From positions 10,478,001-10,542,000 of the forward strand of contig JAGIQG010000040.1 in the NCBI GenBank assembly GCA_024679065.1: a stretch of 64,000 bases of DNA. Reading direction: 5' to 3'. This DNA comes from Sphyrna mokarran. Its lineage: Eukaryota. The translations under genes were made by a program, and so were the position numbers. Shown one piece after another: positions 32,741 through 55,186 of the stretch. Position 1 is the stretch's first letter; the number at the start of each line of letters is the position of its first letter. The notes beneath the pieces were generated by a model that saw only the letters and a program-made list of their open reading frames with translations, had not been told where the DNA came from and ran no database searches.

Positions 32741-33040
32741 CACTTGGACACGGAAATAAAAGAAGTTTCCTTACTTTTGACAAAGAGGGACAATCACAAA
32801 CCCTGAGAGACAACACCCAGAGGAGTGACGGGATCAGATTTTGGGGTTGGGAGCTCCGAGTCAGTGATAACTGTGGAGCCTCGACTGAATCTTCCCAGCT
32901 TTCTGTCACCTTTCCATTCTCGAGTTTTATTTTAAACAATGGGCGTGGCCTAAATTAACAATGTCCAGGCCTGAGGTATTTCAGTTCAGTTCTGAGATCC
33001 AGTGTCCCAGAGCAGCCAGACTCTGCAGTCTCCAGCTCCC

Positions 33041-33051
33041 CGTCACATAAA
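33041..33051 (+). promoter_or_regulatory. Candidate V-segment promoter core (half-CRE CGTCA plus TATA-like CATAAA)
   Basis: cgtcacataaa lies 25-35 nt upstream of the leader ATG. GC box gggcgtggcc at 32941. No Ig octamer seen in the ~300 nt upstream. Confidence 0.45.
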
Positions 33052-33075
33052 CCATCAGCTCCGGGCAGCAGAGAG

Positions 33076-33118
33076 ATGGGAATCCTTCTTGTTTTCACTC
33101 TGTGTGCCTGTTTACCCC
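33076..33118 (+). CDS. Leader exon of the NAR-type V segment
   Basis: ATG at 33076, hydrophobic MGILLVFTLCACLP, phase-1 donor c|gtgagt. 148-nt intron to the V exon. Confidence 0.92.
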
Positions 33119-33266
33119 GTGAGTATCGATCAAACTAACCCACATTGTGTGGATTGGATATAAAGCTGTCCCAGCCCATCCCAATTACAGACACTGTTTG
33201 GGGTTTTAGCCCCGTTGTGTGGTTCGGATCTGATGGTCCATTAAACTCTCTGTGTTTAATTTCCAG

Positions 33267-33556
33267 GATCTTTCAGCCAGTCGGTGGTACAGAGCCCAGA
33301 AGCGGTGACCAAGAAGGAGTGTCAGTCTCTCACCATCAACTGTGTTTTCTATGGCGGATTCTTTGCTCGCCCTTTGGTTAACGGCGAGTTCTTCAAACAA
33401 ACCCAGCCCGGGAAGGAGTGGGAGCCGATCCCCAGCGGAGGGAGATTTATTGTTTCTGTGAACGAAGCAGGAAAGACATTTTCGCTGGAAATTCGGGATG
33501 TGAGAGTTGAAGACGCCGCCACCTATTACTGTAAAGCTCATTATAAATACAAGACA
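33267..33556 (+). CDS. NAR-type (IgNAR-like) V segment of a NAR-TCR chain
   Basis: Acceptor ttccag|, in frame with the leader: SFSQSVVQSPEAVTKKECQSLTINCVF...PSGGRFIVSVNEAGKTFSLEIRDVRVEDAATYYCK. Short FR2/CDR2 typical of VNAR. Extra FR1 Cys. Followed by an RSS. Confidence 0.93.
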
Positions 33557-33595
33557 CACAGTGATGGGCCTCGGCTTCCCGCGATACAAAAAACT
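33557..33595 (+). other. 23-type RSS of the NAR V
   Basis: CACAGTG (33557-33563), 22/23-nt spacer, ACAAAAAAC/CAAAAAACT (33586-33595). Confidence 0.93.
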
Positions 33596-33956
33596 CTCGC
33601 TGCAGATTCTCACAGAACCAAAGCAAAAACCGGAGTTTATCTACCCTGAACAATCCCCCCACCCCCCACTACCCCTCCCACCTGCCAATTCCCACAATTG
33701 TACCTCACACTCTCGGTGCCACAGTTTATTTTTAATAAGACCTGATTATCACCGTTGACATGTTGAGTTTTATAAATACGGAGTGTGAGTGGATGGGGCT
33801 GTCATTCCCGGGAGTGCTGTCGGTGAATTGAGAATGGAAATGACTGATCCCAGTTACAAACCCTGACCCCAGATGGGATCCTCGGCTCACAGCCGGAACT
33901 GGGAGCCACTTTCCGCGCTGTTTAATTCATGTTCCAACATCCCACCCAGTCCCCGA

Positions 33957-34028
33957 GGTTTTGATGCTGAATTGTAACACTGTGGAACTATTGGGACCAT
34001 CACGATGGAAAGAAGCTGAACAAATACC
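33957..34028 (+). other. D segment (33985-34000, GAACTATTGGGACCAT) flanked by 12/12 RSSs
   Basis: 5' side: GGTTTTGAT-12-CACTGTG (33957-33984). 3' side: CACGATG-12-ACAAATACC (34001-34028). Confidence 0.92.
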
Positions 34029-34339
34029 TGTACATAATTAAACATAAGTGCTCAGTACCCAGAGAGTGAATCATTGGTTTGATGATATTATCGCTGTGAT
34101 CGGGATTATTTCTAATGTAATCTCCACCATTCACATCTTTCCTTGATTTTTTTTGCTATATATAAAGTGAATATTTCCTTCCTGCGGCCATTTACTTAGA
34201 GCTAAGGCCTCAGAAAATTACAATTTGAACCGACAGAGACGTTAAAACCTTGAATATTATTTATTGATTTTAAATCCCCCGAATAATTGGACACTTCCGA
34301 ATGTGTGGTGATGGTTTTCCGGCAGATTGAGATATCGGT

Positions 34340-34436
34340 GGTTTTTGTACCGGGGAAATTGAAGGCGGAGTCACTGTGTATGAATGGAAAAATGCTGATG
34401 CGGATGGACCCGGGACGGTGGTGACTGTCACAGCCG
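34340..34436 (+). CDS. NAR-type J segment (coding 34379-34436) with 23-RSS
   Basis: Consensus GGTTTTTGT-23-CACTGTG (34340-34378). Encodes YEWKNADADGPGTVVTVTA. Phase-1 donor g|gtatgt. Confidence 0.93.
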
Positions 34437-35170
34437 GTATGTGACTACAAATCCCCTCTTGTTACAGTCTGTCTCGTTTAATGCCCCCCTTAACTTTATC
34501 ATTGTGATCGGTCTCGTTACAATCCCATCCAATCTTCCTGTGGAAAATCATCTCTAACAGATTACGAGTTGAGAGCAGGGTGGGATTCTGGAACCGGCTC
34601 CATTTCAGTCTCGGGGAAAGTCTGTTTGAGAGCTGATGGAGTCGGCGGTCAGTGGGATAGGGATAGTGGGACAAGACTTCGAGGGGAGAGGGGTGCGGGG
34701 GCGGAGTGGCTTCAGGGGAGAGGGTGGTGAGGCACGGGGTGGGGGTGCCAGTGTTAGGTGTAATATGGGAGTTGAGAATCTGGATGATTATCGGTTTAAG
34801 GGGCATCTAGAACTCTGACACCTCTGACAGCTTTTAACACACTCAACACTCGGGAATCCACTCTGGATGTTAACTGTGACTGAGGGAGATCTGGCTGTCG
34901 CTTCCAGCCCGATAACAGGAGCACAAAGCTCTCTCTCCTGGGCAGTAGATTACAGTCCTAGCCCTGGAATGTCAAGGAAATACCGGCTGACTGAGATCAG
35001 TGTCACTGCGGCCGGTTTATTTAACCGCAGCGACTCATTCAATACCTGAACCAGGAGACAAAAAAAGGAAAATGACACAACGGACCACAGGTGGGAATGA
35101 ACTGATTGTTGGCCCGGAGGAAAGTTGTAACAGAGAAATCAATGACTGAATTTACTGACATTTGTATAAA

Positions 35171-36177
35171 ATTAATCGACAGGGAGAGATAGGTCGGATT
35201 ATCTCTGGAGAATGCTAAAAATATAATTATCACGATTTGATAATGAGACTTGTGGAAGTTCGGAGTGAAATGGACTCCTGTGGGGAATACTGTGTAAAAT
35301 TTGGTCTTCTTTGTTATAGAAAGGTCTACATACATTGGAGGGAATTTACATTGCCTCCGTTTAATTTTGTTTTCTTATTTCCCACCGCTAGTGGTTAGTT
35401 CTGGAGCATAGATCTTCAGTAATTTTGCCAGGATATTTTCAGGGTCCATAGATTTTGCAGAATTCAGTACCTTCAGCCGGTGCTGAGTTTTGTGAATTAA
35501 TTAAACTGGATAAAGACTAACATCACTGATGTTGGGGATCTCTGGAGGAATTCCAGATGGATCATCCAAAGGATTCCTGTGGAGGAAGAATATTGGCACT
35601 GATGTAGCTTTATCTTCAGCAGACTGACAACTCACTTATAGGGATACGGCTGGGATTGCTCCTGAAGTCTTCATTGAACAAGTGTTACTCTCTTGTTCGC
35701 TAATGTCAATGCAGGGGACATGCTGGGTCATGAGGTTACAGATTATGTCTGAGTACAATTTTGCTATGCATGGCCCACAGTGCCTCAGGTTGCCAAGCAT
35801 CATGTTGCTAAATCTGCTGGAAATCTGATCTGAAGGCGATGCCACACTACAAGATGGAGTGTAGATCAATGTGAAGTTAGGACTGAGAGAGGGGGATGAG
35901 GTGGAAGTCGTTGAGGGAGAACAGGAGAATAGCAAAGAATTGTGAAGAGAATTTCTTTGAACAAGCAATACATGATTAATCGACAGGGAGTGACAGACTG
36001 GATTATCTCTGGAGAATGCTAAAAATATAATTATCGCGATTTCATAATGAGACTTGTGGAAGTTCGGAGTGAAATGGACTCCTGTCGGGAATACTGTGTA
36101 AAATTTGGTCTTCTTTGTTATACATACATACATACATATATATACATATCTACATACATTGAAGGGAATTTACATTG
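35171..36177. repeat. ~180-bp direct duplication (35171-35353 and 35975-36177)
   Basis: Both copies read attaatcgacagggag...gagacttgtggaagttcggagtgaaatggactcctg...ggaatttacattg. Confidence 0.9.
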
Positions 36178-36815
36178 TCTTTTGTGAAGAGATTGAAGAC
36201 CCAGATTTTAATTTGAGGTTAGAGGAATTAGGAGTGATCTCATTAGAATTTATCACATTCTCAAAGGACTGGACAAAGCAAATTTTAGGTGTTTGTTTTT
36301 TTTTCCTAGGCGGGTGAGTCTATAACTTGAGGTCACATTTTCAGATTAACAGTTCAGTCAGTTGGATTAAGAAGAGGAGAAATTTCTTCAGTCAAAGCCA
36401 TTGTGGTGAATCTGAGAATTCTGTACAGCAAAGAGCAGTGGTAGTCAGTGTTAAACACATTCAAGGCAGCGTTTGTGATATATCTGTACCGTGAAATAGT
36501 CAGGGGGAATGGGTCAACGCAGGAATTTCTTGTTGAGGCAGAAGATAAACTGCAACATTACTGATCGATGGCGCAGCTTTGAAATGTGAAACGGCCGCTC
36601 TTGCTTCTATTAGTTGGAAATTTTGCTTCGATTTCTGCATTTCTCAAGAAATCAATCCGCAACAATGTCTGGGGTCTCTTTACATCTAGATATTAGAGAA
36701 CAGTGAAGAGGATTCATGGAAATGGTTCATGTAATGAACATGTTAATGAGATGGATGTCACCAAATTATTTATTTTTGGGTGTGTCTGGAGCAAGGGGCT
36801 ATTAATATCTGATAG

Positions 36816-38092
36816 TGTTACAATCCCAGTTGATGTTACTATTGGATGGGAAGCTCCCAGATGAAAATTTGACTGGAAATAATGTAGTGTATTCTCCTGT
36901 TTTAGAACAATGGGGGGAATTGAATAATTGGATGGCCAATTAGATTTTAGTAATAGAAGATAAAAACATTTATCAATCATGAAAAAGTTTTCTTTGACAC
37001 AATTTACTATGACAGCCCAACTCTTCAAGACTGTACACAGACTTTAAGGATAACACAGATTGCAAAATAAATCTTTGCTATCATGTACCCTGTAAATGCA
37101 ATCCCTGTAAAACAAAAGGTCATTGTCTTCAGCTACACCCCATTCCAATACCCAGTGGTAGATACCATCCAATCAAATTTCTGTGAATTGCTCCTCAAAA
37201 CCCCACAGATCATTAAAAGCTGTGAGCCAACTGGCCTCTCCAGACTCTCACATAGACACGAGTGTTTCCCATTCCCCACGTTTGAAAAGTCATGTCTTTG
37301 GTAAATTCTACCAAATAACTCTTTGCCTGCTCTACTTTCATCAAGGATCCACTTCCAGAATTTCGCATTTTGTTTTCACTATTCCTCTGTCTTGAATTCC
37401 CATATGAATTCAAGTTTCCATACAAGCTCAGAGGTGTGTCGCCATGCCAATACTGCTTCACTGGCCTCACCAATATTATGATTATATCTGAAAGCTGGCT
37501 GGCCAACTTCACCAGGTCTGTGCAGTTCAGCTCTGCATTTAGCTGGGGTCCTTTGTCTCTGCCCCGTCTTCAACTTTGAGAATCAGTACATAGTTCAGTT
37601 TCGAGTTCCTTTGCCCCCCCAACCACCCCCACCCTCTCAGTTCAGTTGTCCTGGAACGTTTTCATTTCAGTTCCTTGGTTTCCAAAACTATGTGTTTTTT
37701 TATTATCTGGGATTTTTTTTTCTTCTTCTCCTTACTCCACTTATTGTTTCTGCTTTGACAGAGCAGGTGTTTTTTGTCTCATTGCGTATCTCCTAAAGCC
37801 TTGGGCCCAGTTAAACGCCTTCCTAATACAAAGGTGGCTCCTGGTTCCCAAGGAACAGCCTATTCCTACTTTACAGCATTTTATTTTTCATGTCATTAAC
37901 TCCCTCGGCATAATACAGACACCGTTTAAAATGAACGAAAAACCCGAAACACATTTGTTTGATATCAAGCTAACTAGAGTTTTACCCTAACTTATACAGA
38001 AACACTAAACTAAACTCAATTAAATCTATACCTCATTTCTAATATTCAATAATACAATCACAGATTGCAGAAACCACCTCTGCCTCCTGACA
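36816..38092. mobile_element. Solo LTR (or short LTR element) with 4-bp target-site duplication
   Basis: Begins TGTTA (36816) and ends TGACA (38092). Flanked by ATAG on both sides (36812-36815 and 38093-38096). Confidence 0.65.
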
Positions 38093-39099
38093 ATAGTGAT
38101 TCAGAGAAAATCTAAATATCAAGAAGCAAAATTTAAAGTATCAGCCAGGATGTGAAACTCACTGTCATTTTGAATGTTTGGAGCAGCAGGTACTGATACA
38201 TCTATAGGAAAACTTGAAAATATCAGAGGGAGAAGAGATCAGACTGACACAGGGAGCTGGATGGGAAAGATCAATTAGAAAACGGCGGGTTGAGGTTGGT
38301 CTGGAATATTTACACAGACATATCTGTGTAGGTCGAATTGTCTCTTCTTCTGCTGCTGTCCTATAAAAATTATAACTTATAGGAAACTCTGCCCAGAGAC
38401 GCAGGGAAAGAGTCAGTTAATGAGCAGAAAAAAATGAAATAGTCAGAGATCCAGTGAGTCACAGTAAAACCACTGCGGAAACTGAACAGAATGAACACAA
38501 CTGACAACAAGTATGAAATTTTCGGGCATGTTTCCACAACACAAAAAACGCAAACAACAAAAAGTAAATGAAATGCATCTGATTAGAGATTTCAATGTAA
38601 AGTGAAGGAGGGAAAACAATAGACTGACAGAAAATAAATAAATAGATTTAAAAGAAAGGCTTCCAGAAAGTGTTAAATTCAATTAAATGTCTGTACATTT
38701 GGCCACCGTTGTTCGGCATGTTTCTGCCCTGTTGAAGCTGATTAATCACAATCATTTTTGTTGGATCTTGCTGTGCATTGTGATGTGAGCAGTTGGGTTA
38801 CGCTTTGACAAGCATTTCTAGAAATGGATTGCGTCACTGATAATAAAATATTCCCTCAGTTTGTGTCCCAACATGGAACTGGAAGCTGAAATCGAGTATA
38901 TATGGTAGAATCATTTAGCATGGAAGGGTGACATTCGGCCCCTCGGGTAGATGCTGTCCCTTTATAAATGAAATCTAATTCTTCCACAAGCTATGAATAT
39001 TCCTGATAAACCTGTTGTTTTCCTGTTCATGTATGTGATCATTCCTCATTCATAATTGACTGTTAAACCAGCTCTTACTAAGCTGACAGTGTGTTCATA

Positions 39100-39575
39100 A
39101 ATTCACAGAATTTACAGCAAAAAAACAGGCCCTTCTTTCCAAACTGATCCGTGTGCCGATCAAAATGCCCATCTAAGCTCAACCATTCGCCTGCTTTTGG
39201 CCCATACCCTTCTAAAACTTTTCCCTCCATGTGTCAGTCCAAATGTCTTTTAAATGTTGTCAATGTCTATGCCTCAACCACTTCCTCCGGCAGCTCATTA
39301 TACGTATCACCCTTTGTGTAAAAAAAGTTTTCTTCCCTGCAGAGTCCCGTTAATTCCTTCTTGTTCTCGATTCTCAACCCTGGGAATAAAATTGAGTTCA
39401 TTCGCTCTATCAGTGCCTCTTATGATCTTGTACTCTTTTACAAGCTCACCTGTCTGTCTCCTATGCACCAAAGGAAAAAGTCCAATCTCTGCCTGTAACT
39501 CAGTCCCTTGAATCCTGACAACATCCTTGTTAATCTCTTCTGCAATCTCTCCAGTTTAATAACATCGTTACAGAT
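39100..39575 (-). mobile_element. Degraded CR1 LINE 3' fragment
   Basis: KLERLQKRLTRMLSGFKGLSY (ORF 39438 -) and CR1-type 3' UTR. Confidence 0.7.
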
Positions 39576-39775
39576 CATTTGTGCATTTGTGTTTGTTTGC
39601 GCAAAATAGAATATCATCTCATTGTACACTGGTTTATAGAGTAAATGAATCTCGTTCCATTGGAATTAAAATAATAACGACACCGCACAAAACTGAGCTA
39701 CTCCCGCAACTGTCACAATCCCTGGGTAAAAAGTGGTAAGGCCTTAAAAAAAAGTGTTTTTTTTTAATCTGGCAG

Positions 39776-40080
39776 ATTCCCTGGTATCCAAGAATCCGCC
39801 TCTCCAAATCTCTGCTGCCGATGACACGGTTACTTTAAGCTGTGAATATTCAGGAATCTGTCAGTACACAGTGTACTGGTACAGTCAGTCCCCAGGACAG
39901 GGTCTGAAATACTTGCTTCAGAAAGACACTTCCGGACGGAACAATAAAGAAAACGCTGCCGGAGAGAGAATTTCTGCTTCTATCGATTCTGTCGAGAAAA
40001 TCAGCCGGTTAAAGATCTCCGAACTGCAACTAAACGACTCGGCTACCTATTACTGCGGACTGAGTCGGCACAGCCTGAAC
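39776..40080 (+). CDS. Leaderless supporting TCR-delta-type V segment
   Basis: Acceptor ggcag|, phase 1, in frame with the upstream J: DSLVSKNPPLQISAADDTVTLSCEYSGICQYTVYWYSQSPGQGLKYLL...LQLNDSATYYCGLS. Canonical C, W and YYC plus an extra CDR1 Cys. No leader exon seen upstream. Confidence 0.93.
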
Positions 40081-40119
40081 CACGGTAGTTGAATCTCCCT
40101 TAACACCCGTACAATAACC
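40081..40119 (+). other. 23-RSS of the supporting V
   Basis: CACGGTA (40081-40087), 23-nt spacer, ACAATAACC (40111-40119). Confidence 0.85.
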
Positions 40120-40346
40120 TCCCAGCATCACGGGAGAAAACCAAGCTCTCTAAATAACACCCTCCCAACACCACTCCCACCACCATCTTCCATCTCCACC
40201 GAGTGTACACAATTATTTATCCCCCACCCTCTTCCCCCGTTCCCCACCCCACCCCATCCACCCATTCCCGGTGCTGGGACACGGCAGAAGGACAGAGAGA
40301 GGTGGACAAGATCACAACAGATCTGGTTATGGAATCAAACAGCGTG

Positions 40347-40407
40347 TAACATGGAGAGACTAGAAAGCTCATCTTTGGCAATGGAAGCAGGCTGATTGTG
40401 GAACCCA
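40347..40407 (+). CDS. TCR-delta-type J segment 1
   Basis: HGETRKLIFGNGSRLIVEP with phase-1 donor a|gtaagt. Heptamer CAGCGTG (40340-40346), 12-nt spacer, weak nonamer AGATCTGGT (40319-40327). Confidence 0.9.
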
Positions 40408-40515
40408 GTAAGTAACTAATCCTGGATAATGATTACTCAACATGTTAGTTCCCCTCCGTGACTTCATGGAGCCATACAGTCACTGCGTTATTTCAATTAA
40501 CACTATTTTTATATG

Positions 40516-43500
40516 GAACATAGAACATAGAACATAGAACATTACAGCGCAGAACAGGCCCTTCGGCCTTCGATATTGCGCCGACCAATTAGGAAAAAGC
40601 AATGACCCTCTAACCTAAACCATTCCCTTTTCGTCCATAAACTTATCTACTAACCTCTTAAACGCCACCAAAATTGGCGCATCTACAACTGCAGCAGGCA
40701 GGGCATTCCATACCCTTACCACCCTCTGGGTAAAGAACCTACCTCTGACATCTGTCCTATAACTACCACCCCTTATTTTAAAGCTATGTCCCCTCGTGCT
40801 AGCTTTCTCCATCCGAGGAAAAAGGCTATCACTGTCCACCCTATCTAAACCTCTAATCATCTTATATGTTTCAATAAGGTCTCCTCTTAGCCGCCTTCTT
40901 TCTAACGAAAACAACCTCAAATCCCTCAGCCTTTCTTCATAAGACCTGCCCTCCATACCAGGCAACATCCTGGTAAACCTCCTCTGTCCCCTCTCCAATG
41001 CCTCCACATCTTTCTTATAATGCGGGGACCAGAACTGCACACAATACTCCAAGTGCGGCCGCGCTAGAGTTTTGTACAGTTGCAACATGACGTTGCGGCT
41101 CCGAAATTCAATCCTCCTACCAATAAAAGCTAAGACTCCATATGCCTTCTTAACAACCTCATCGACTTGATTGCCAACTTTCACGGATCTATGCACATAT
41201 ACACCAAGATCCTTCTGTTCTTCAACGCTATTAAGAGTTCTACCATTAGCCCTATACTCTACACATTTGTTATTCCTGCCGAAGTGAATTACCTCACACT
41301 TTTCCGCATTGAACTCCATTTGCCACCTCTCGGCCCAGCTCTGCAACTTGTCCAAGTCTCTGTGCAAACTATAACACTCCGCTTCACTATCTACCACTCC
41401 TCCGACTTTGGTGTCGTCCGCAAATTTACTAATCCATCCTTCAATACCCTCATCCAGATCATTTATAAAGATTACAAACAGCAGGGGTCCCAAAACAGAT
41501 CCCTGAGGTAATCGAACTCCACAATGAATAATTTCCATCAACCACCACCCTCTGTCATCTATCAGCTAGCCAATTCCTAATCCAATTGGCTAAATCACCC
41601 TCCATACATCTGCATTTTCTGCAGAAGCCTTCCATGGGACACCTTATCGAACGCCTTACTAAAGTCCATATATACCACATCAACTGCCTTACCCCCATCC
41701 ACCTCTTTGGTCACTTTTTCAAAAAACTCAATAAGGTTAGTAAGGCACGACCTACCCTTCACAAAACTATGCTGACTATTCCCAATCAATTCATTTCCCT
41801 CTAAATAACTATAAATCCTATCCCTAATAATTCTTTCCAATATTTTGCCCACAACAGAAGTAAGACTCACCGGTCTATAATTCCCAGGAAAGTCCCTATT
41901 TCCCTTCTTGAACAATGGGACCACATTCGCTATCCTCCAGTCTTCCGGCACAATACCAGTAACCAACGACGACCTGAAGATCAGAGCCAGAGGTTCTGCA
42001 ATTGCCTCTCTCGCCTCCCAGAGAATCTTAGGGTAAATCCGTCCGGCCCAGGGGGCTTATCTAACTTCAAACCCTCAAGAATATCTAGCACATCCTCCTT
42101 ATCTACTTCAATACTTTGAAGTTTACAACCCTGTATCCCAGTGTTCTCCACTACTAGATTTGCATCTCCCTGCGTGAATACCGAAGAGAAATATTGGTTC
42201 AGTGCCTCTCTAATCTCTTCAGGCTCCACGCACAACTTCCCACTGCTGTCTCTGACTGGCCCTAATCTTGCCCTAACCAATTTTCTATTCTTAACATATC
42301 TAAAGAAAGCTTTAGGATTCTTCTTGATCCTATCAGCCAAAGTCTTCTCGTGTCCCCTTTTAGCTCTTCTCAACTCACTCTTCAGCTCCCTCCTGGCTAA
42401 TCTATAGCTATCCAGTGCACTAACTGAGCCTTCAAGCCTCATCCTGACATAAGCCTCCTTTTTCCTTTTAACCAGCGAATTAACTTTTTTAGTACACCAT
42501 GGTTCCCTTACTCGACCATTTCCTCCTTGCCTGACAGGGACATACTTATCAAGGACTCGCAGCAGCTGCTCCTCGAATAAGCTCCACATTTCAGATGTTC
42601 CCAGTCCCTGTAGTTTCCTAGTCCAATCTATGCACCCTAATTCTCTCCTTATGGCCTCATAATTACCATTCCCCCAGCTATAACTACTGCCCCCAGCTTC
42701 ATGCCTATCCCTATCCATCACTAAGGTGAACGTAACCGAATTGTGGTCACTATCACCAAAATGTTCACCAACTTCCAAGCCTAACACCTTGTCTGGCTCA
42801 TTGCCCAGCACCAAATCCAATGTAGCCTCACCTCCAGTTGGCTATCTACATACTGAGTCAAAAAACCTTCCTGCACACTTTGTACAAAAACTGACCCCTC
42901 TAACGAGCTAGAGCTATAGCTATTCCAATCAATATTAGTAAAGTTAAAGTCCCCATAACAATTACCCTATTACTTTCATTCCTGTCCAGAATCGACTTTG
43001 CAATCCTTTCCTCTACCTCTCTAGAACTTTTAGGAGGTCTATAAAAGACTCCCAACAGGGTGACCTCTCTTCTTCTGTTTCTAATCTCAGCCCATACTAC
43101 CTCAACAGACAAGTCCTCATCAAACTCCCTTTCTGTCACTGTGATACAGTCTTTGACTAATAATGCCACTCCTCCCCCCCTTCTACCTCCTTCTCTACTC
43201 TGACTGAAGCATTTGAACCCCGGAACCTGCAACAACCATTCCTGTCCTTGCTCTATCCATGTCTCTGAAATGGCCACAACATCGAAGTTCCAGGTACTGA
43301 TCCAAGCTGCAAGTTCCTCCACCTTATTGCGAATACTTCTTGCATTAAAGTATGCGCATTTCAAACCATGCTCTACTCCACCCGTACGCTGCTGTGCTTT
43401 ACAGTTCTCATTTATGACCCCCCCATTCTCGTCCCTCTTAACATCCAAGCTACTCAGGATCCCACCCTCCCTCTGAATCAGTTTAAACCCCCCTGCATAG

Positions 43501-44470
43501 CCTTTGCAAATTTTCCCTCCAAGATATTGGTTCCCCTCTGGTTCGGTTGTAGACCATCTCTCTTGTAGAGGTCCCACCTACCCCAGAATGAGCCCCAATT
43601 GTTCAAGAACCTGAACCCCTCCCTCCTGCACCATCCCCTCAGCCACGAGTTCAAACATTCCCTCTCTCTGTTCTTCTCTAAACTATCCCGTGGCACAGGC
43701 GAGAGTCCAGAGATAACCACTCTGTCGGTTTTGGCCCTAAGCTTCCACCCCAACTCCATAAATTTCTGTTTAATATCCCCTTCCCTTGTCCTACCTACAT
43801 CATGTGTCCCTACATGAACTATGACTTGGGGCTGACTCCCCTCTCCCTTAAGAATCTTGAAAACCCGCTCTGAGACGTCCTGGACCCCGGCCCCTGGTAG
43901 GCGACACACCAGCCCTGAGTCCCGTTTATTACTATTTACTCTTCTATCTGTCCCCCTAACTATGGAGTCTCCAATTACCAGGCCCAATCTCTTATTTCCC
44001 CTACCCACCTGAGCCTTCCCAGCAGACTCACCCCCAGAGACCTGCTCTCTTTGGCTATCCGAGTTGATTCTTCCTGAACTGTAGCCTCCAGGACAGAAAA
44101 CTTATTTTGGAGGGGAACAGCCCCAGGGGATTGTCTCCCCGATTGCTTCTTACCCCTCTTCCTAATAGTTACCCAAGAATCTCTTTTAGGAGTGACTATC
44201 TCTTTGTAACTCCTGTCAATATCAGCCTCAACCTCCCGAATTATCCGGAGTTCCTCTAATTCCAGCTCCAGCTCCTTAACATGATCCTCAAGGAGCTGCA
44301 AATGGGCACACTTCCTGCAGGTATGTTCAGCAGGAACACTACTGGTGTCCCTCACCTCGTACATACCGCAGGGGGTGCAACGTACTGCCTGCACTGCCAT
44401 CCCTGATACTTTAATTTCTAGGAGAAAAAAAAACTTCCCACACACGGGGGAAGCACACGGGGAAACGGGT
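40516..44470 (-). mobile_element. Near full-length CR1-clade LINE (ORF1: zinc finger, leucine zipper, SGNH esterase; ORF2: APE endonuclease and RT), frameshifted
   Basis: ORF1 motifs CTPC..CRKC, LELELEEL, GDSIVRG, HVGTHD. APE motifs YFNARS..ISETW..YRPP. RT motifs [21 protein letters not shown]. (gttctat)n tail at 40516-40540. Split over six ORFs. Confidence 0.95.
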
Positions 44471-45744
44471 GAGCAGTTCTCATTGGGAATCCAAAGAACA
44501 GCTTCACTGGGCATTGAGATAGAGCAGATGAGAGCTTTATTTCCACAATTCAAGATTGTTTCCTTAAAACATTTAACTGGCCTTTATCATAAAACCCACC
44601 TGATAGCTGGCAAGGAGATGTATTGATGAAATTGTTGTTTGTAATGCAATTAAATGAGAATGAGAGATAGAGATAGAGAGAGAGAGAGAGACTCCTGCTC
44701 AGCCACGCCTAATATATAACATGGCTTTCTCAAGCTTTCAGCTCTTCACAAAAAAATCTAGCGTCTTCGTCCAAAAATAGCTATCACTGAAAGCAGAGCA
44801 ATTCTTTCACTGGGCGAAGCGAGGCAATTTGGTTTTTAATTTGTGCTTGGCTGTGCGTATATTTGAAGGATTTTATAAGATCCATTGTCCCTCTCTTGGT
44901 GGTAGATAATTTTTAAGGTTTACTATTCGCATACGATGGCAGTTGTCGAAGCTCCCACTCACATTTATGAACATGCCAGTATCCTTATTTTCAATATTGG
45001 TTGGAATCTGAATAAGTTGCTGCGCTTGTAGATTTCTGCTGGTAACTGTTCACAGTGCTCATTACTATGTCGGTACTTAGAAACTCAACTTTGGGTGCGG
45101 GAACTAACTGAATGTTGTACCAATTAGATGCCAGCTGATTTATCTTTACCCTTCGATGGACATTTCTGGTAAACCCGTGTCTGGCGAATGGTGACAAAAA
45201 GCGAAGGCAATGCTTAAAATTAAAAGCAAACCGTTAGATGGATTAATGCATCATTAGATATTTAATTAGAACGGTAGAGATCCAAAGAATATAAATCAGT
45301 AAATTCGTAGATATCACACAAATTGGTGTTGTGATGAGTAGCGAGGAGGAAAACCTTACATTATAGATCGATATAGAAAGTTTGGTTAAATGGACAGAGA
45401 AGTAGAAAATTGAAAGTGAACCTTTAAAAGTGTAATGTGGTGCATTTTGGCAGGACTAACAGGGCAAGGATATATACAGAAATTAATGAAAACTGCATGG
45501 AAGGGAAGTTAAACTGCTGGCTATGTCTTCAACTTTTTTGAAACAGAGAAAAAACAAATAAAACAAAATACCTAAATGGGGATGGGTTTCAGGGAAATGA
45601 ATAGTTGCATTTCTTCTTTGGAGATCACCTGGCATTATAATTTGAATCCTAATCTATGGTCAAATCACCAAGCAGGTCAAAAACAACCTCTTGCATTACT
45701 GTCAGCACGGGACTAATAGATTTGTGTAGCGTCTGTTATGATTG

Positions 45745-46390
45745 CTCAGACATTGAATACAAGAGTTAGGGCGTTTTGTTGAAGTTGTACAAGGCATTGG
45801 TAAGTTCACACTTGGAATATTGTGTACAATTCTGGTCACCCTATTATCGAAAGGATATAATTAAACGAGAAAGAGTGCAGAAAAGGTTTACTAGGATGTT
45901 ACCGGGACACATGAAGGTTTAAGGCTGGATAGAGCGGGACTGTTTTCTATGGAGTGTACAAGGCTGAGGGCGGTCTTATAGAAGTCCGTAAAATAATGAG
46001 GGACTCAGATCAGCGAGATAGTCAATACATTTTCCCAAAGGTAGGAGAGTCTAAATCTCGGGGTGGAAGGCTGGGCAGGGGAAGGGTGAGGGGGGACATA
46101 ATTTACGGGTAGAGTGGAAAGACACAGAAGTGTCCAGAGAGGCATTTTTTATATATACAGAAGGTGCTGAATGTAACAACTTGCCAGAGGTAGTAGCAGA
46201 GGCGGGTACAATTTTATCTTTTAGAAAGCATTTGGACAGTTACATTGGGTAAGGTGGGTATACAGGGAAATGGGGCAAGTGTGGGCAATTGGGTTTAGCT
46301 TATGGGTTTAAAAAGAAAGTCTGTATGAACAAGTTAGGCCGAAGGGCCTGCTTCCATGCTGTAAATCTCTATGATTCCTTGACTCTATGA
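45745..46390 (+). mobile_element. Degraded CR1 LINE 3' fragment
   Basis: cacttggaatattgtgtacaattctggtcaccc (HLEYCVQFWSP) and ctctatga tail. Confidence 0.8.
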
Positions 46391-47714
46391 TTGTGTCATC
46401 CCCACAACTGAAAGATTGATCCTTGGTACTTGAACAAAACTCACTGTGGAAAGTCGTATGCATCTTCACAAAGTTACATTACAAAGCACTTATATAGCTC
46501 GTCCCTAAATGTGGAAGGCAGTGGGGTGTTGCCTTGTTGAATCTGCTGCACTCATCCACGTGTTGTGTGTATTATTCCATCCTGCTTATAAAACATTTCC
46601 ATTGTGTGGAGAGATTGAGGGGAGTGCGGTGGCCAGTTGTTATTTGAGGTTAGCAAATGCATTAAGATTCTGATCATTCTTCCCCTCAAAGTTCTTTTTT
46701 ACACGATCCCAGTAAATAATGTATTGGCCTGTTACGTTCAAATGGATGGGAAGTGAGAGCGTTTATATTCTTACCTGGATATAACCTGCCCTGGCTATTG
46801 CAGTCAGCAAAATCTGAAATTGAATTCGAACTCACTTAGGAGAGATATATAAATAAATCATATTTCTGCTCATGTGGTTGGGTTTAGTTTTTTTTATCCC
46901 ATTATGTACAGATGTGCTGGCACCAAAACTTTAAAACGTGTCTTTGGCAAATTCATTTCACGACCTAACAAGACGTTTAAAAACGTCAGCTTGGATCTGG
47001 TTGGGACTTAAGTAATTGGCGTTCCTTAAAGATTCTCAAGGACTCTTCCTCATGTGAACTTTGTGTATTCCCTGCCTCTGAATTATTGAGTATGTTTCAT
47101 CAATACTAAATGACACTGCAGTTTCACTCCAATGGAAGGTGCTTTTTATACAGGATATTATGACTTTACTGTGAAGCTGCGGCAGCCAGTTGACAGTTTT
47201 GCCAAGTGAGGACGATTGGAAATTACTGCCATTCTCCTTCATGTCGATTATTTTTTCGCTGTATTGTGTCTGACAACTAGCAAGCGGGCAATGATACAAA
47301 GTATTATATGAAATACAAGTTAAGGCATTCTGTCCGTAAAATGAACTTCAGAAAGATAGATAGATAATGAACTCGTGTCTCAATGTTCAGTTAGACATTC
47401 CGCAGGTGGCAGACCAATCTCTGGGCTTCAGCAATGTGACAGATATTGATGCGTGACTTACCGGTGGACCTTGCATCATGGTGAAGTTATGCAACTGGGG
47501 GGAAGCGATGTCCTGGTCGTATTATCGCAAAATTATTAACCCCGAGACTCAGCGAATATTTGAGGGAACTGGGTTCGAATTCCGTCACGGCAGATTTTGG
47601 AATTTGAATTCAATAATCTGGAATTAAGAATTTACTGGTATCCAGGAAAACGATTGCCGATTCTTGGGGGAAAAAAAAGCTATCTGGTTCCCTCATGTCC
47701 CCTGGGGAAGGAAA

Positions 47715-48800
47715 CATAGGAACATTGAATATGGGAGCAGGAAGAGGGGTTTGGCCTTTCAAGCATGATCTGCCATTTATTATGATCATGATTGAGCATC
47801 CACTCAATAGCCTAAACCCGCTTTCTCTCCATAACCTTTGATCCCATTCGCCCAAGTGCTATATCCAACCGCTTCTTGAATGCATTCAATTTTCTGGCAA
47901 CAACTACTTCCTACTTTCACAGGCTCATCACTTTTTGGGCGAAGAAATGTCTCCTCATCTAATATATCTTGTCCTGTTCGAATTTTATAAGTCTCTATGA
48001 AATCCATTGTCATCCCTTTCAGTAAGTCTCCCGAATATATGAAAGTCAAATCACGCCTCATATCTTCATAGTCTCCTTTATTAAGATTCAGCACAGTAAT
48101 CTCCGAGTCAACTGCTTCACTCTCACCTTGATTAAAAAAAAAAAATTCTCATGTTATGTTCACTAACCCCCAAGGGGTCACACGCAGCTAGATTGGCAAT
48201 TATCACTTTCTCACTACACAGTACCCAGTCCAAGATGGCCTGCTCTCTAGTTAGTCCTTCACATATTGATCAGGGAAACCATCCCGTATCGGATTCAGGA
48301 AATCCTCCTCTACAGCATTGTGCTAATTTGATTTGCTCAATCAATGTGCAGATTAAAATCACCCTTTATCACCGATATTTCCTCATCACATGTATCTCTA
48401 ATTTCGTGTTTAATGTCATTTCCAACATCACCACTGCATTTTCGTTGCCTGTATATGACATTCACTGATATTTTCTGCCCGTTGGTATCTCTCAAATCTA
48501 CTCATATAGATTCCACATTATCAGACCTAATGTCGTTTCTCACCAGTTTGCTAATTTCCTCTTTACCAGCAGTGCCACTCCAAAACCTTTTCCTTTTTGT
48601 CTATTCATCCTAAATATTGAATACTCTGGGACATTCAGTTCACATCCTTGGCAACTCTGCAGCCATGTCTCCGCAATCCCAATTATAGCATGCCCATTTA
48701 CATCTATCTGCAAGATTAATTCATCCACTTTGTTGCAAATGCTCTGTGCATTAAGGCACAGAACCTTTAAGTTTGTCAATTTCACATTGATTGTCTCGTT
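47715..48800 (-). mobile_element. CR1 LINE fragments (3' end joined to an APE fragment)
   Basis: LCLNAQSICNKVDEL...IAETWL (ORF 48540 -). aaacataggaacattgaa tail at ~47715. Confidence 0.75.
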
Positions 48801-49915
48801 CTCAGTATTTTTCTCTATAGCCCTTTACGAGTGTTGTCTTTGGTTTCTCTGCCTATCATGTTTTTAATCCCTTTTCGACCCCTTTTTTTATACTTGTTCC
48901 CTCCTTCCCTGACTCCTTACATAAGTTCCCAACCACCTGGCATATTAGTTTCTTTGCGTGACCTTGTAGTATTGTGAGGTGGTGAAACTGAAAGGAGGCA
49001 ATGCCCCAGTGGTGTTATCCTAGATTATTAATCCGGGAAATCAATCAGTGTTCTGGGGACCCTGCGTTCGAATCCTACCATGGCAGATGGTGGAATTCAA
49101 ATTTAATAATCTGGAATTAAGAATCTACTGCTGACGATGAAAGCAACTGTTGGAAAATCACATCTGGTTTAGGAATGTCCTTTACAGAAAGAAATCTGCC
49201 ATTCTGATCTGACCTGGCCTATATGTGCAATTTGGATGACTCTCAAGGGCAGTTGGGAATGGATAATAAATTCTGGCCAGACAATGGTGCCCATGTCCCA
49301 CGACCAAATAAACATCTCTCTCTCTTTGAAAATAAGTCCGAGTAACTGTTGATGCAACTAAATGTAAACGCATCTTTCAGACTCAACATGTCTGCTTACC
49401 TCTTCGGAATCTAACAGGATTATGAAAATAAGAACAGATAATACTGGTTAAAACCCCAGCAGGTCCGGAAACATCTCAAAGGAGAGAAAGCTTAGCTAAC
49501 AAATTAAGTATTATTCATTGAATTGTATTTATTTTCTACCAGATGTTGAGGCACCACTGGCAAGACCATGTTGCAAATTGCTGTTAAGCCATTTCAGAGA
49601 TTGGCAGAGCAGGAGCGAAGAGCTGAATGGCCTTCCCTTGTTCCCATGGTTCCTAACAAAAGTTCAGAGGCAAAATATCTCTGTTGCAGGGGGAGGACAT
49701 GGATTGCTTTATTTGACCAGTGGCTACCCTGGCTCAGAAATTCTTCACATTGGTAGAATCCTAGAGCATCCAAGGAGGCCTTTCGGCCCACTTAGCCTGT
49801 GATGGTGGGAAGGGATAAGATATGCAATATCTGTTATCTGCAGCGAATCAGTGACTGTTCCAACTTTATCTTTGCCGTGAATTGTCTGAAATCTGAAACA
49901 GCTATCACAATAGAA

Positions 49916-49993
49916 GGTTTCTGTCTGAGCAATTGTTTCTGTGATATGAAAAGCTGACGTTCAGCAGCGGCACCCAGGTGACAGTTATACCAA
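49916..49993 (+). CDS. TCR-delta-type J segment 2 (coding 49944-49993) with 12-RSS; non-canonical FSSG motif
   Basis: GGTTTCTGT-12-TTCTGTG (49916-49943). Encodes YEKLTFSSGTQVTVIP. Phase-1 donor a|gtgagt. Confidence 0.88.
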
Positions 49994-50399
49994 GTGAGTG
50001 TGAAGTCAGTGTGTTTTTATTCTTTCACTCCACATCTCCTCTGTGATCTAGTTTTCTGTTGTAAGTAGTCTAGTCAAGTTGGGCAGAGTGCCAACATGAC
50101 ATGTGGCATGCAGGCGAGGAGATTGGTTAGTTTTGAGTCAGTTTTGATCTAGCTCAGTTTACCCAGGCATTAGAGGCACATTGGAAAGGAGTTGGGACTG
50201 CACGCCTCAGTAATATGGTATTGAACTGAGAAACAGATTTGTGTCGTGTGAACGGGATAGGAAGATTCCATTCAGAGAGTTGATTTAAATGAGAGAGGGG
50301 AGACGAATAAGCATCATTGTTCTGTTTAAACCGTTGTAATTGTGAATTACACAGGATTTTCATTCTCTTGGCGAAAAATAAACTCTCCTCATATCAGTC

Positions 50400-51150
50400 C
50401 CATACTACTTGAATATGAACCCTGGTTCTGGACCCTGCCTCCACTCTGCATCTACCCTGTCTAATCCTGCATTATATGTTTTAGTGACATCTTCTCCTCC
50501 TGCCTTCCTTCTTCTGAACCCCAGACAATAAAATCCTAACCGGCTCAATCTCCCCTCATATGTCAGTCCTGCCACTCCAGAATCTGTCTGGTGAACTTCT
50601 CTCCACTCCCTCTTTAGCATCAACTGCACTGCACTAGTCTACCTTTTTGGCTATCCCTTCAAAAATTCATTCAAATTTATGAGATACGATTTTCCACTCA
50701 CAAAGCCATGCTGAATGTCCCTAATCAGTCCTTGCATCTCTAAATGACTGTAAATCCTGTCTCTCAAAATATATTTCAACAATTTACCCACCACAGATGT
50801 GAGGCTCACTGGCCTGTAGTTTCCAGGCTTTTCCCTGCAGCCCCTTTTAAACAAAGACACAACATTTGCCACTTTCCAATCTTCAGGCACCTCACCTGAG
50901 TCTAACGATGATTTAAATATCTCTGCTAGGGAACCCGCAAATTTCTCCCTCGCCTCCCATAATATCCTGGGATACACCTCATTAATTTTCGGGGATTCAT
51001 CGATCTCAATGCGCTGTTAGACTTCCAGCACCTCTTTCTCTGTTATATGTACACTCCCAAAGACATCACTATTTTTTCCCCAAGTTCCCTAACAACGATG
51101 CTTTTGTTAACAGTGAATACTGGTGAGAAATATTCAATTAGGATCTCACC
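50400..51150 (-). mobile_element. CR1 LINE ORF2 fragments
   Basis: GEVPEDWKVANVV...PGNYRPVSLTSVVGK (ORF 50651 -). Confidence 0.88.
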
Positions 51151-51152
51151 CG

Positions 51153-51272
51153 CGTGTGTTCGTGTATGTGTGTGTGTATGTGTCTGTGCATGTATGTGTG
51201 CCTGCTTGTGTGCACAGGCATGTGCGCACTGTGTGTGTGTCTGTGTGTGTGTGTGTGTCTGTGTGTGTGTGT

Positions 51273-51317
<45 letters not shown>
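51153..51317. repeat. (TG)n/(GA)n microsatellite
   Basis: Direct inspection. Confidence 0.95.
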
Positions 51318-51497
51318 GGCGTTTTCTGTGCCAGGGGAAAAGGATTATTTATCCAGTCTCAGCATTCGGTAAGTTAATGGAGAAACTTACATAGGGTTAA
51401 GACACAGGAAAAATGTGGTCTAATCGAATGGCACAGCAGGTTGGGGGATGTCACCCTGTTGGATTCTGATTTTTTTTCCTTTTATTTTCATTTTTAG

Positions 51498-51800
51498 AGG
51501 CGAAAGGCCCGGAAGAACCAAAATTGAGCGTCTTTTACCCGCCAGTGCCACCGGGAGCCACCAACACCAGCACCGCTGCAGTCTGCTTGGCCTCGGACTT
51601 CTCCCCCAAGGCAATCCAGCTCTCCCTGTACACGGGATCCGGCCAGGAGGTCAATGTGACAAGATCCAGTGTCCCATTGGAGAGCGGGAATTACAGGAGC
51701 TCGGGTTTCCTCTCTTTCCCCCAATCCGGGAAATCACCAAACATCACGTGCAAGGCATTTCACAATAATCAGATTTACTCAGTAAACATCCCGCCCACTG
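51498..51800 (+). CDS. TCR-delta-like constant (C1-set) domain exon
   Basis: Acceptor tttttag|, phase 1: AKGPEEPKLSVFYPP...TAAVCLASDFSPKAIQLSL...NITCKAFHNN. Donor g|gtaagt at 51800/51801. N-glycosylation sequons NTS, NVT and NIT. Confidence 0.92.
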
Positions 51801-54539: not shown

Positions 54540-54587
54540 ATCAAACTAAATGCCTTAAAAATGGATATGATTCCTCAACAGAAAACG
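54540..54587 (+). CDS. Connecting-peptide exon of the TCR-delta-like C region (interchain Cys)
   Basis: Acceptor ccttccag|, encodes DQTKCLKNGYDSSTEN, donor g|gtatgt. 48 nt, phase 1-1. Confidence 0.88.
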
Positions 54588-55076: not shown

Positions 55077-55186
55077 ATCGACTGAGGGCGAACTTTTTGT
55101 CTTTGATGGTGATGGGGCTAAGAATTTTGTTTCTCAAGAGCATTGTCTTCAGTGTCCTGATGACGGCCAGGGTGTGGTTATTTTGA
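55077..55186 (+). CDS. Transmembrane/cytoplasmic exon of the TCR-delta-like chain
   Basis: Acceptor tggcag|, encodes DRLRANFLSLMVMGLRILFLKSIVFSVLMTARVWLF*. The intramembrane R and K at i and i+5 are diagnostic of TCR alpha/delta chains. Donor 1 nt after the stop. Confidence 0.95.

Follow-up and report, generated by a model that had tools for sequence, protein, structure and literature searches.

A shark NAR-TCR cluster with its own C-delta and a supporting V germline-joined to the 3' end of a D-delta segment

The supporting V of described NAR-TCRs reportedly joins D-delta as well as J-delta elements that are shared. According to the accessible parts of the published descriptions, this V-delta carries a cysteine in CDR1 (PMC1845163), and the two variable domains of the receptor are generated by separate V(D)J rearrangements (PMC1845163, PMC5931798). 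The NAR-TCR entries in Table S1 of PMC12227049 are V-only cassettes from four species, without a C of their own, and germline-joined NAR-TCR distal Vs are already marked there as 'V(gj)'. The locus analyzed here resembles these receptors, as far as the accessible parts of PMC1845163 and PMC12227049 describe them, in having a supporting V-delta behind a NAR V-D-J, a predicted in-phase splice and a delta-type C. It differs in that a J set and a C belong to each cassette individually, and in that the supporting V is fused to the 3' RSS of a D. NAR-TCR and the germline joining of shark Ig are already known, and what is apparently new is a V-D-fused supporting V in a cluster with its own C. Neither own-C NAR-TCR clusters nor such a supporting V were found described in the literature searched, which excluded Criscitiello 2006, Deiss 2019 and Ott 2021, whose figures and supplements could bear on this point. 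A term search of the elephant shark supplement gave no match.

A comparable design is known from TCR-mu. In the accessible text of PMC7615758 and PMC3457774, platypus TCR-mu is organized as V1-D-J1-V2-J2-C with a second V that lacks D, and in marsupials this V is germline-joined, for which retrotransposition has been proposed; the domains are VH-like and of independent origin, and the D is reported as lost. An earlier note on this DNA had drawn the parallel with platypus TCR-mu, and these sources bear it out. Like TCR-mu as described there, the shark clusters are tandem and self-contained, with their own C, a diverse distal V and a D-less supporting V of predicted low diversity. Unlike TCR-mu, their Vs are of NAR type and shark V-delta, with neither a VH relation nor TRM orthology, and the RSS of the D survives and would serve the V. 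By analogy, the cluster may work like TCR-mu without being a member of it.

Germline joining by RAG has been described for shark Ig: in the accessible parts of PMC2193153 and PMC5192425, partly joined VD-J clusters that show trimming and P bases are attributed to germ-cell RAG activity. To that extent the germline-joined shark Ig genes (VD-J, VDJ and VJ) share with this locus a partly joined V-D that retains an RSS and, probably, the involvement of germ-cell RAG, but they are Ig genes joined within one cluster, whereas here a TCR supporting V is concerned and the join is likely also to have built the cluster. For TCR-delta of the newt Pleurodeles, the accessible part of PMC12698447 reports that no D genes were found and that one V-J is pre-joined in the germline. 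This system is likewise D-less with germline joining, but it is a single-V receptor with a fully joined exon, and a D-derived RSS is not reported in that part of the source.

A complete NAR-TCR unit

One complete NAR-TCR unit was found on the forward strand of the window, which is the whole 64,000-nt stretch of shark DNA analyzed (C994:10478001-10542000; positions without a contig name are those of the window). The NAR V leader exon (33076-33118), located from the sequence and by tblastn with the rearranged NAR-TCR record P0013, is the single leader-like match within the window. It is followed by a NAR-TCR V exon (33267-33556; to 33594 with its RSS, which has a 22-nt spacer) that is 65% identical to the NAR domain of P0013. 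This membrane-distal domain retains a free D (33985-34000), which lies between two 12-RSSs scoring 20.8 and 17.1 (33957-34028 in all). A 23-RSS and the NAR J (34379-34436) occupy positions 34340-34436, and the J ends in a phase-1 donor that is in phase with the acceptor of the supporting V and keeps it in frame. With a second V located downstream of a NAR-type V that possesses a D and a J, the unit has the genomic organization of a NAR-TCR.

The supporting V exon (39776-40080) has an open frame and a V-set match. Its V-derived part (39776-40073) is a TCR-delta V with the CDR1 cysteine of NAR-TCR supporting Vs (motif SGICQY), and it stops 2 nt before the end of the closest-ending free V. Behind it lie a 7-nt germline junction (40074-40080) that is open and in frame, a 23-RSS (40081-40119), a spacer without an RSS-flanked D (40120-40318), and a weak 12-RSS (40319-40346) with J1 (40347-40407), which opens with a TAA codon in frame; RSS and J1 together span 40319-40407. 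Directly behind J1, a LINE-type retroelement on the reverse strand (40516-44460, approximate ends; RVT_1 and GDSL-like Pfam matches) breaks the collinearity with the TCR-delta blocks described below. This insertion is missing from older copies of the unit. Three decayed Js (45030-47210; near 45060, 46400 and 47160) are again collinear with those blocks, and they are followed by J2 (49944-49993; 49916-49993 with its 12-RSS, which scores 19.4), in which FSSG replaces FGxG.

The unit is completed by an open TCR-delta-type C Ig exon of its own (51498-51800), a connecting-peptide exon with a cysteine, recognized from sequence and phase-compatible (54540-54587), and a transmembrane/tail exon with charged R and K and a stop (55077-55186). 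Every exon frame of the unit is open and the splice phases are compatible. The C is of C1-set type, its connecting-peptide and transmembrane exons are intact, and its protein is 79-81% identical to the Cs of two D-bearing blocks elsewhere in the genome; the label 'delta' is a reading from the 12/23 D upstream of those intact blocks and from the likeness to the start of the P0013 C. The cluster is a self-contained NAR(VDJ)-V(D)-J-C unit with its own C-delta.

The supporting V is 68-90% identical to 36 shark homologues, of which the closest named ones are Mustelus asterias gene models (up to 90%). Among the Mustelus models, which are predicted proteins only, eight have this C and six of these also have a supporting V, so this genome is probably not the only one with more than one C-delta block. 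A tree of C proteins that included the Mustelus models was mostly unresolved and not converged, and the V protein tree contained one V row that is out of frame.

Origin of the 23-RSS behind the supporting V

The earlier note had proposed that the supporting V carries an RSS of its own and rearranges directly to J with no D. The 266 nt that it gave between the end of the supporting V and the start of J1 were confirmed, and a search of 40120-51497 for a D with an RSS on either side found none. This interval was scanned on both strands, with spacers of 11-13 and 22-24 nt and facing pairs 3-45 nt apart, using a weight matrix for heptamer and nonamer (rather than an RIC model) that was derived from 39 RSSs in the same genome (score range 11.0-28.4); one training RSS assigned to the wrong strand was discarded. 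The weaker side of the best facing pair scored -2.4 overall and -4.4 among 12/23 pairs, compared to 17.1, 25.6 and 17.1 for the weaker sides of three real Ds, and 100 shuffled sequences gave a median best-pair score of 1.4. The 12-RSS of J1 scores 11.0, the lowest value in the training set. The score of 17.1 for the RSS at 40081 is partly circular, since the matrix was trained in part on the homologous D RSS. The proposal stands in that there is no separable D and that a single join of V-to-J type is predicted from the sequence, although 'rearranges' is itself a prediction.

Two candidates were rejected: the word ctggga (40274-40279) as a D, since its sides score -23.5 and -18.4 and the same word recurs between D and J in one of the intact blocks, and a heptamer-like site at 40069 as the V's own RSS, with scores of -0.6 and -4.9. 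Two D-like loci at 4.46 and 3.13 Mb were excluded from the comparison as invalid D controls. These loci (C994:4461981 and 3129551) combine a good 5' 12-RSS with a 3' RSS that has a 15-nt spacer, and each lies upstream of J-alpha-like segments.

Two intact TCR-delta D-J-C blocks are present on C994 in opposite orientation (3.85-3.87 Mb and 5.36-5.38 Mb), in each of which one D and five to six Js were found. The spacer of the RSS at 40081 matches those of the 3' 23-RSSs of their D-deltas (C994:3851834 and 5380995) at 20/23 and 19/23 positions, versus 4-9/23 for the RSSs of all eight other supporting Vs compared, and the entire RSS is 36/39 identical to that of the D at C994:3851834. The 61 nt after the RSS show the same pattern, with 48/61 and 45/61 matches to the intact D blocks and 10-17/61 to the supporting-V RSSs. 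From 40079-40081 onward the sequence is homologous to the intact blocks, a homology that includes the D-J1 spacer and continues collinearly to 56000 via J1, the three dead Js, J2 and the C exons. The DNA 5' of the D was absent in 11/11 fused units matched.

The coding end of the V therefore adjoins D-derived DNA, in which the 3' RSS of the D is retained while the RSS of the V and the 5' RSS of the D are gone. Because both the RSS and the downstream DNA match an intact D-J-C block, these comparisons lead us to conclude that the supporting V is germline-fused to the 3' end of a D-delta. The breakpoint lies no more than about 2 nt from the V cleavage site and within 0-7 nt of the D heptamer. The 7-nt junction itself is ambiguous: it could represent N bases plus a D tail, with the V trimmed by about 2 nt and a D core of at most 2-7 nt, or leftover flank of a V RSS. 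That the 23-RSS is the supporting V's own, as had been supposed, does not hold, since the RSS and the 266-nt spacer are D-delta-derived and the V is already joined to the D 3' end. An alternative in which the V kept its own 23-RSS and the D was deleted from the interval fits the outcome in a second type of cluster (see below), where the V's own RSS faces J1 without a usable D; for the window unit it is refuted by the D-type RSS, and we give it next to no weight. With the V fused to the D end, the remaining step is predicted to be a join of D-to-J type.

Two cluster types and the origin of the fusion

Thirty matches were obtained when the V-J1 region was used to query the genome. When 20 supporting Vs were compared, 13 ended in the V-type RSS family (intact or decayed) and seven, all of the window type, in the D-type family. 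The fused units comprise these seven and four of a second type. At least 13 C exons of this kind are present in the genome, two behind a free D and 11 in one clade (96/97), of which six lie behind a window-type unit, four behind the second type, and for one only J2 was found upstream. No C was found for the unit at C994:12.147 Mb, and no V-J1 for the C at 11.96 Mb. The frames were open in all copies translated (V 7/7, C 11/11). An assembly artefact as the source of this cluster type was rejected, since the copies are 93-100% alike and lie on both strands, although redundancy or allelism may account for three copies at 99.7-100% and for those on C47 and C180. A repeat of the unit lies 78 kb upstream of its position in the window (C994 10432807 vs 10511260) with V exons that are 99.7-100% identical, and the NAR D of the upstream repeat differs from that of the window (90% over 80 nt).

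In the second type, the V keeps its own RSS, accompanied by one or two RSS repeats in tandem; the flank of the last repeat leads into a decayed D remnant, with the junction inside the D and 2 nt before a repeat heptamer. The RSS of this remnant has a 22-nt spacer in 4/4 units and a broken CAC in 3/4, whereas CAC and the 23-nt spacer are intact in the D RSS of 7/7 window-type units. This difference suggests that the D RSS is perhaps in use only where the V has no other. Conservation of the RSS in excess of its spacer was observed for the three near-identical copies against one intact D (p=0.022), and it was not significant for the other four copies or against the second D. Supporting Vs that retain an RSS of their own precede arrays in which a 61-nt unit with an internal 23-RSS is repeated in tandem, in two to about ten copies (C994 3400624-3401330, 3406600-3407263 and 3607276; C1271:53493-53675).

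A RAG-mediated V-to-D coding joint in germ cells would have removed the 23-RSS of the V and the 5' 12-RSS of the D, and would have placed the NAR-TCR cassette right before a D-J-C block. The location of the breakpoint, at the V cleavage site and abutting the D heptamer, supports such a joint, which we consider the likeliest and a reasonably probable cause of the fusion. A large deletion or duplication independent of RAG, with its breakpoint between V end and D end by chance or through short homology, would be in keeping with the many duplications and inversions of the region and with the short homology shared by repeat flank and D at the second-type junction. However, out of kilobases, both junctions fall at V-side RAG cleavage positions and in a D of 15-16 nt, and such an event is improbable.

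The germ-cell joint also has to be weighed against a two-stage route, in which an ancestor like the second type lost its V RSS and D remnant by two small deletions that left the D 23-RSS beside the V; present function would be the same as under a direct joint. The second type does exist in four copies, the C exons of the 11 clusters group together to the exclusion of both intact blocks, and the 7-nt junction matches the end of a V-RSS nonamer and its flank exactly (7/7), with a chance probability of about 0.013 for one repeat array and 0.09 for all seven. The D coding remnant, by comparison, is nearly unrecognizable (last 2 nt exact, 4/7 ungapped). Two extra deletions would be required, though, each ending about 2 nt from a heptamer, and the Vs of the two types form separate clades (100/99 each). 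Between the types, the upstream intron is 69-77% identical and is thus more diverged than most of the DNA behind the junction (77-93%), which favors separate capture of two Vs, although the step in identity from 5' to 3' could reflect gene conversion, with 88-90% identity between the types in the NAR module. We regard the two-stage route as possible but doubtful.

Germline joins are also seen on the NAR side, where four V-D fusions and additional fully joined VDJ copies occur among the nine NAR V ends listed. The four fused NAR Vs (C994 near 3.397, 3.411, 3.418 and 3.602 Mb; L041-L044) retain a 12-RSS that resembles the 3' RSS of the NAR D. Fully joined, in-frame NAR VDJ exons are found in the second type, where they lie behind the NAR cassette that rearranges and ahead of the supporting V (C994:10983470-10983607; C1271:42.2-50.0 kb, in four tandem copies; C180; C47). 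A chain with these exons could have more than two V domains, or splicing could bypass them.

More generally, we tentatively propose, at less than even confidence, that supporting Vs were joined into D-delta by germ-cell RAG on two or more occasions, each time creating an own-C NAR-TCR gene with one junction fewer, that these genes expanded into an expressed TCR-mu-like family, and that the V-mu2 of platypus, which lacks D, may be explained by the same one-step passage from translocon to cluster. If so, the TCR-mu design, in which own-C clusters combine a diverse distal V with a constrained supporting V, was reached independently in sharks, and the intermediate can still be read in the DNA; germline RAG joining would extend from shark Ig to the supporting domain of a TCR; and a concrete route from translocon to cluster would be at hand. 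It also raises a question for mammals, namely whether the RSS behind platypus V-mu2 is a V RSS or a D RSS. The earlier note had viewed the locus as a possible intermediate toward a pre-joined support V, which is closer to the sequence than could be recognized at the time, but 0/20 supporting Vs are fully V-J joined, and a direction of evolution toward such a V cannot be shown.

Predicted use in T cells

In T cells, RAG would be expected to join the fused V(D), via its D-derived 23-RSS, to the 12-RSS of J1 or J2 in one step. Since it is already fused to a D tail and RSS, the supporting V would need only this single join and would vary less, with one junction instead of two in the supporting domain, while the NAR domain would retain V-D-J diversity. 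The predicted product is a three-domain NAR-TCR chain on the cluster's own C-delta. When joins were computed for trimming of 0-6 nt on each side and without N bases, 14/49 were open for J1 (CDR3 of 13-16 residues) and 16/49 for J2 (10-13 residues), and a J1 join without trimming reads a stop. The supporting CDR3 of P0013, a single case whose source is not stated, has 19 residues. The proximity of J1 is no sign of preference, because the RSS of J2 is stronger (19.4 vs 11.0).

A protein search for short rearranged V-J products, which is a weak test, found none. Reads of one sequencing run (0.10 word share) mapped to 33000-51000 at 80% likeness were swamped by repeats, and no V-J joint was present among the 15 of 80 joints listed. 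The cluster could instead be a recent duplicate that rearranges rarely or never, so that the missing D is functionally meaningless, as might be argued from the weak J1 RSS, the three dead Js, the LINE insertion, the non-canonical J2, the near-identity of the copies, and the V-J1 unit and C at 12.147 and 11.96 Mb that lack a found counterpart. Yet all exons are open and in phase, V and C remain open in the seven and 11 copies translated, and the coding DNA of J1 shows a single silent change among seven units that are 93-100% alike. We therefore consider a non-rearranging duplicate unlikely.

A cryptic 23-RSS (score 16.2) is also present within the supporting V itself, at 39867-39905 near the conserved tryptophan.
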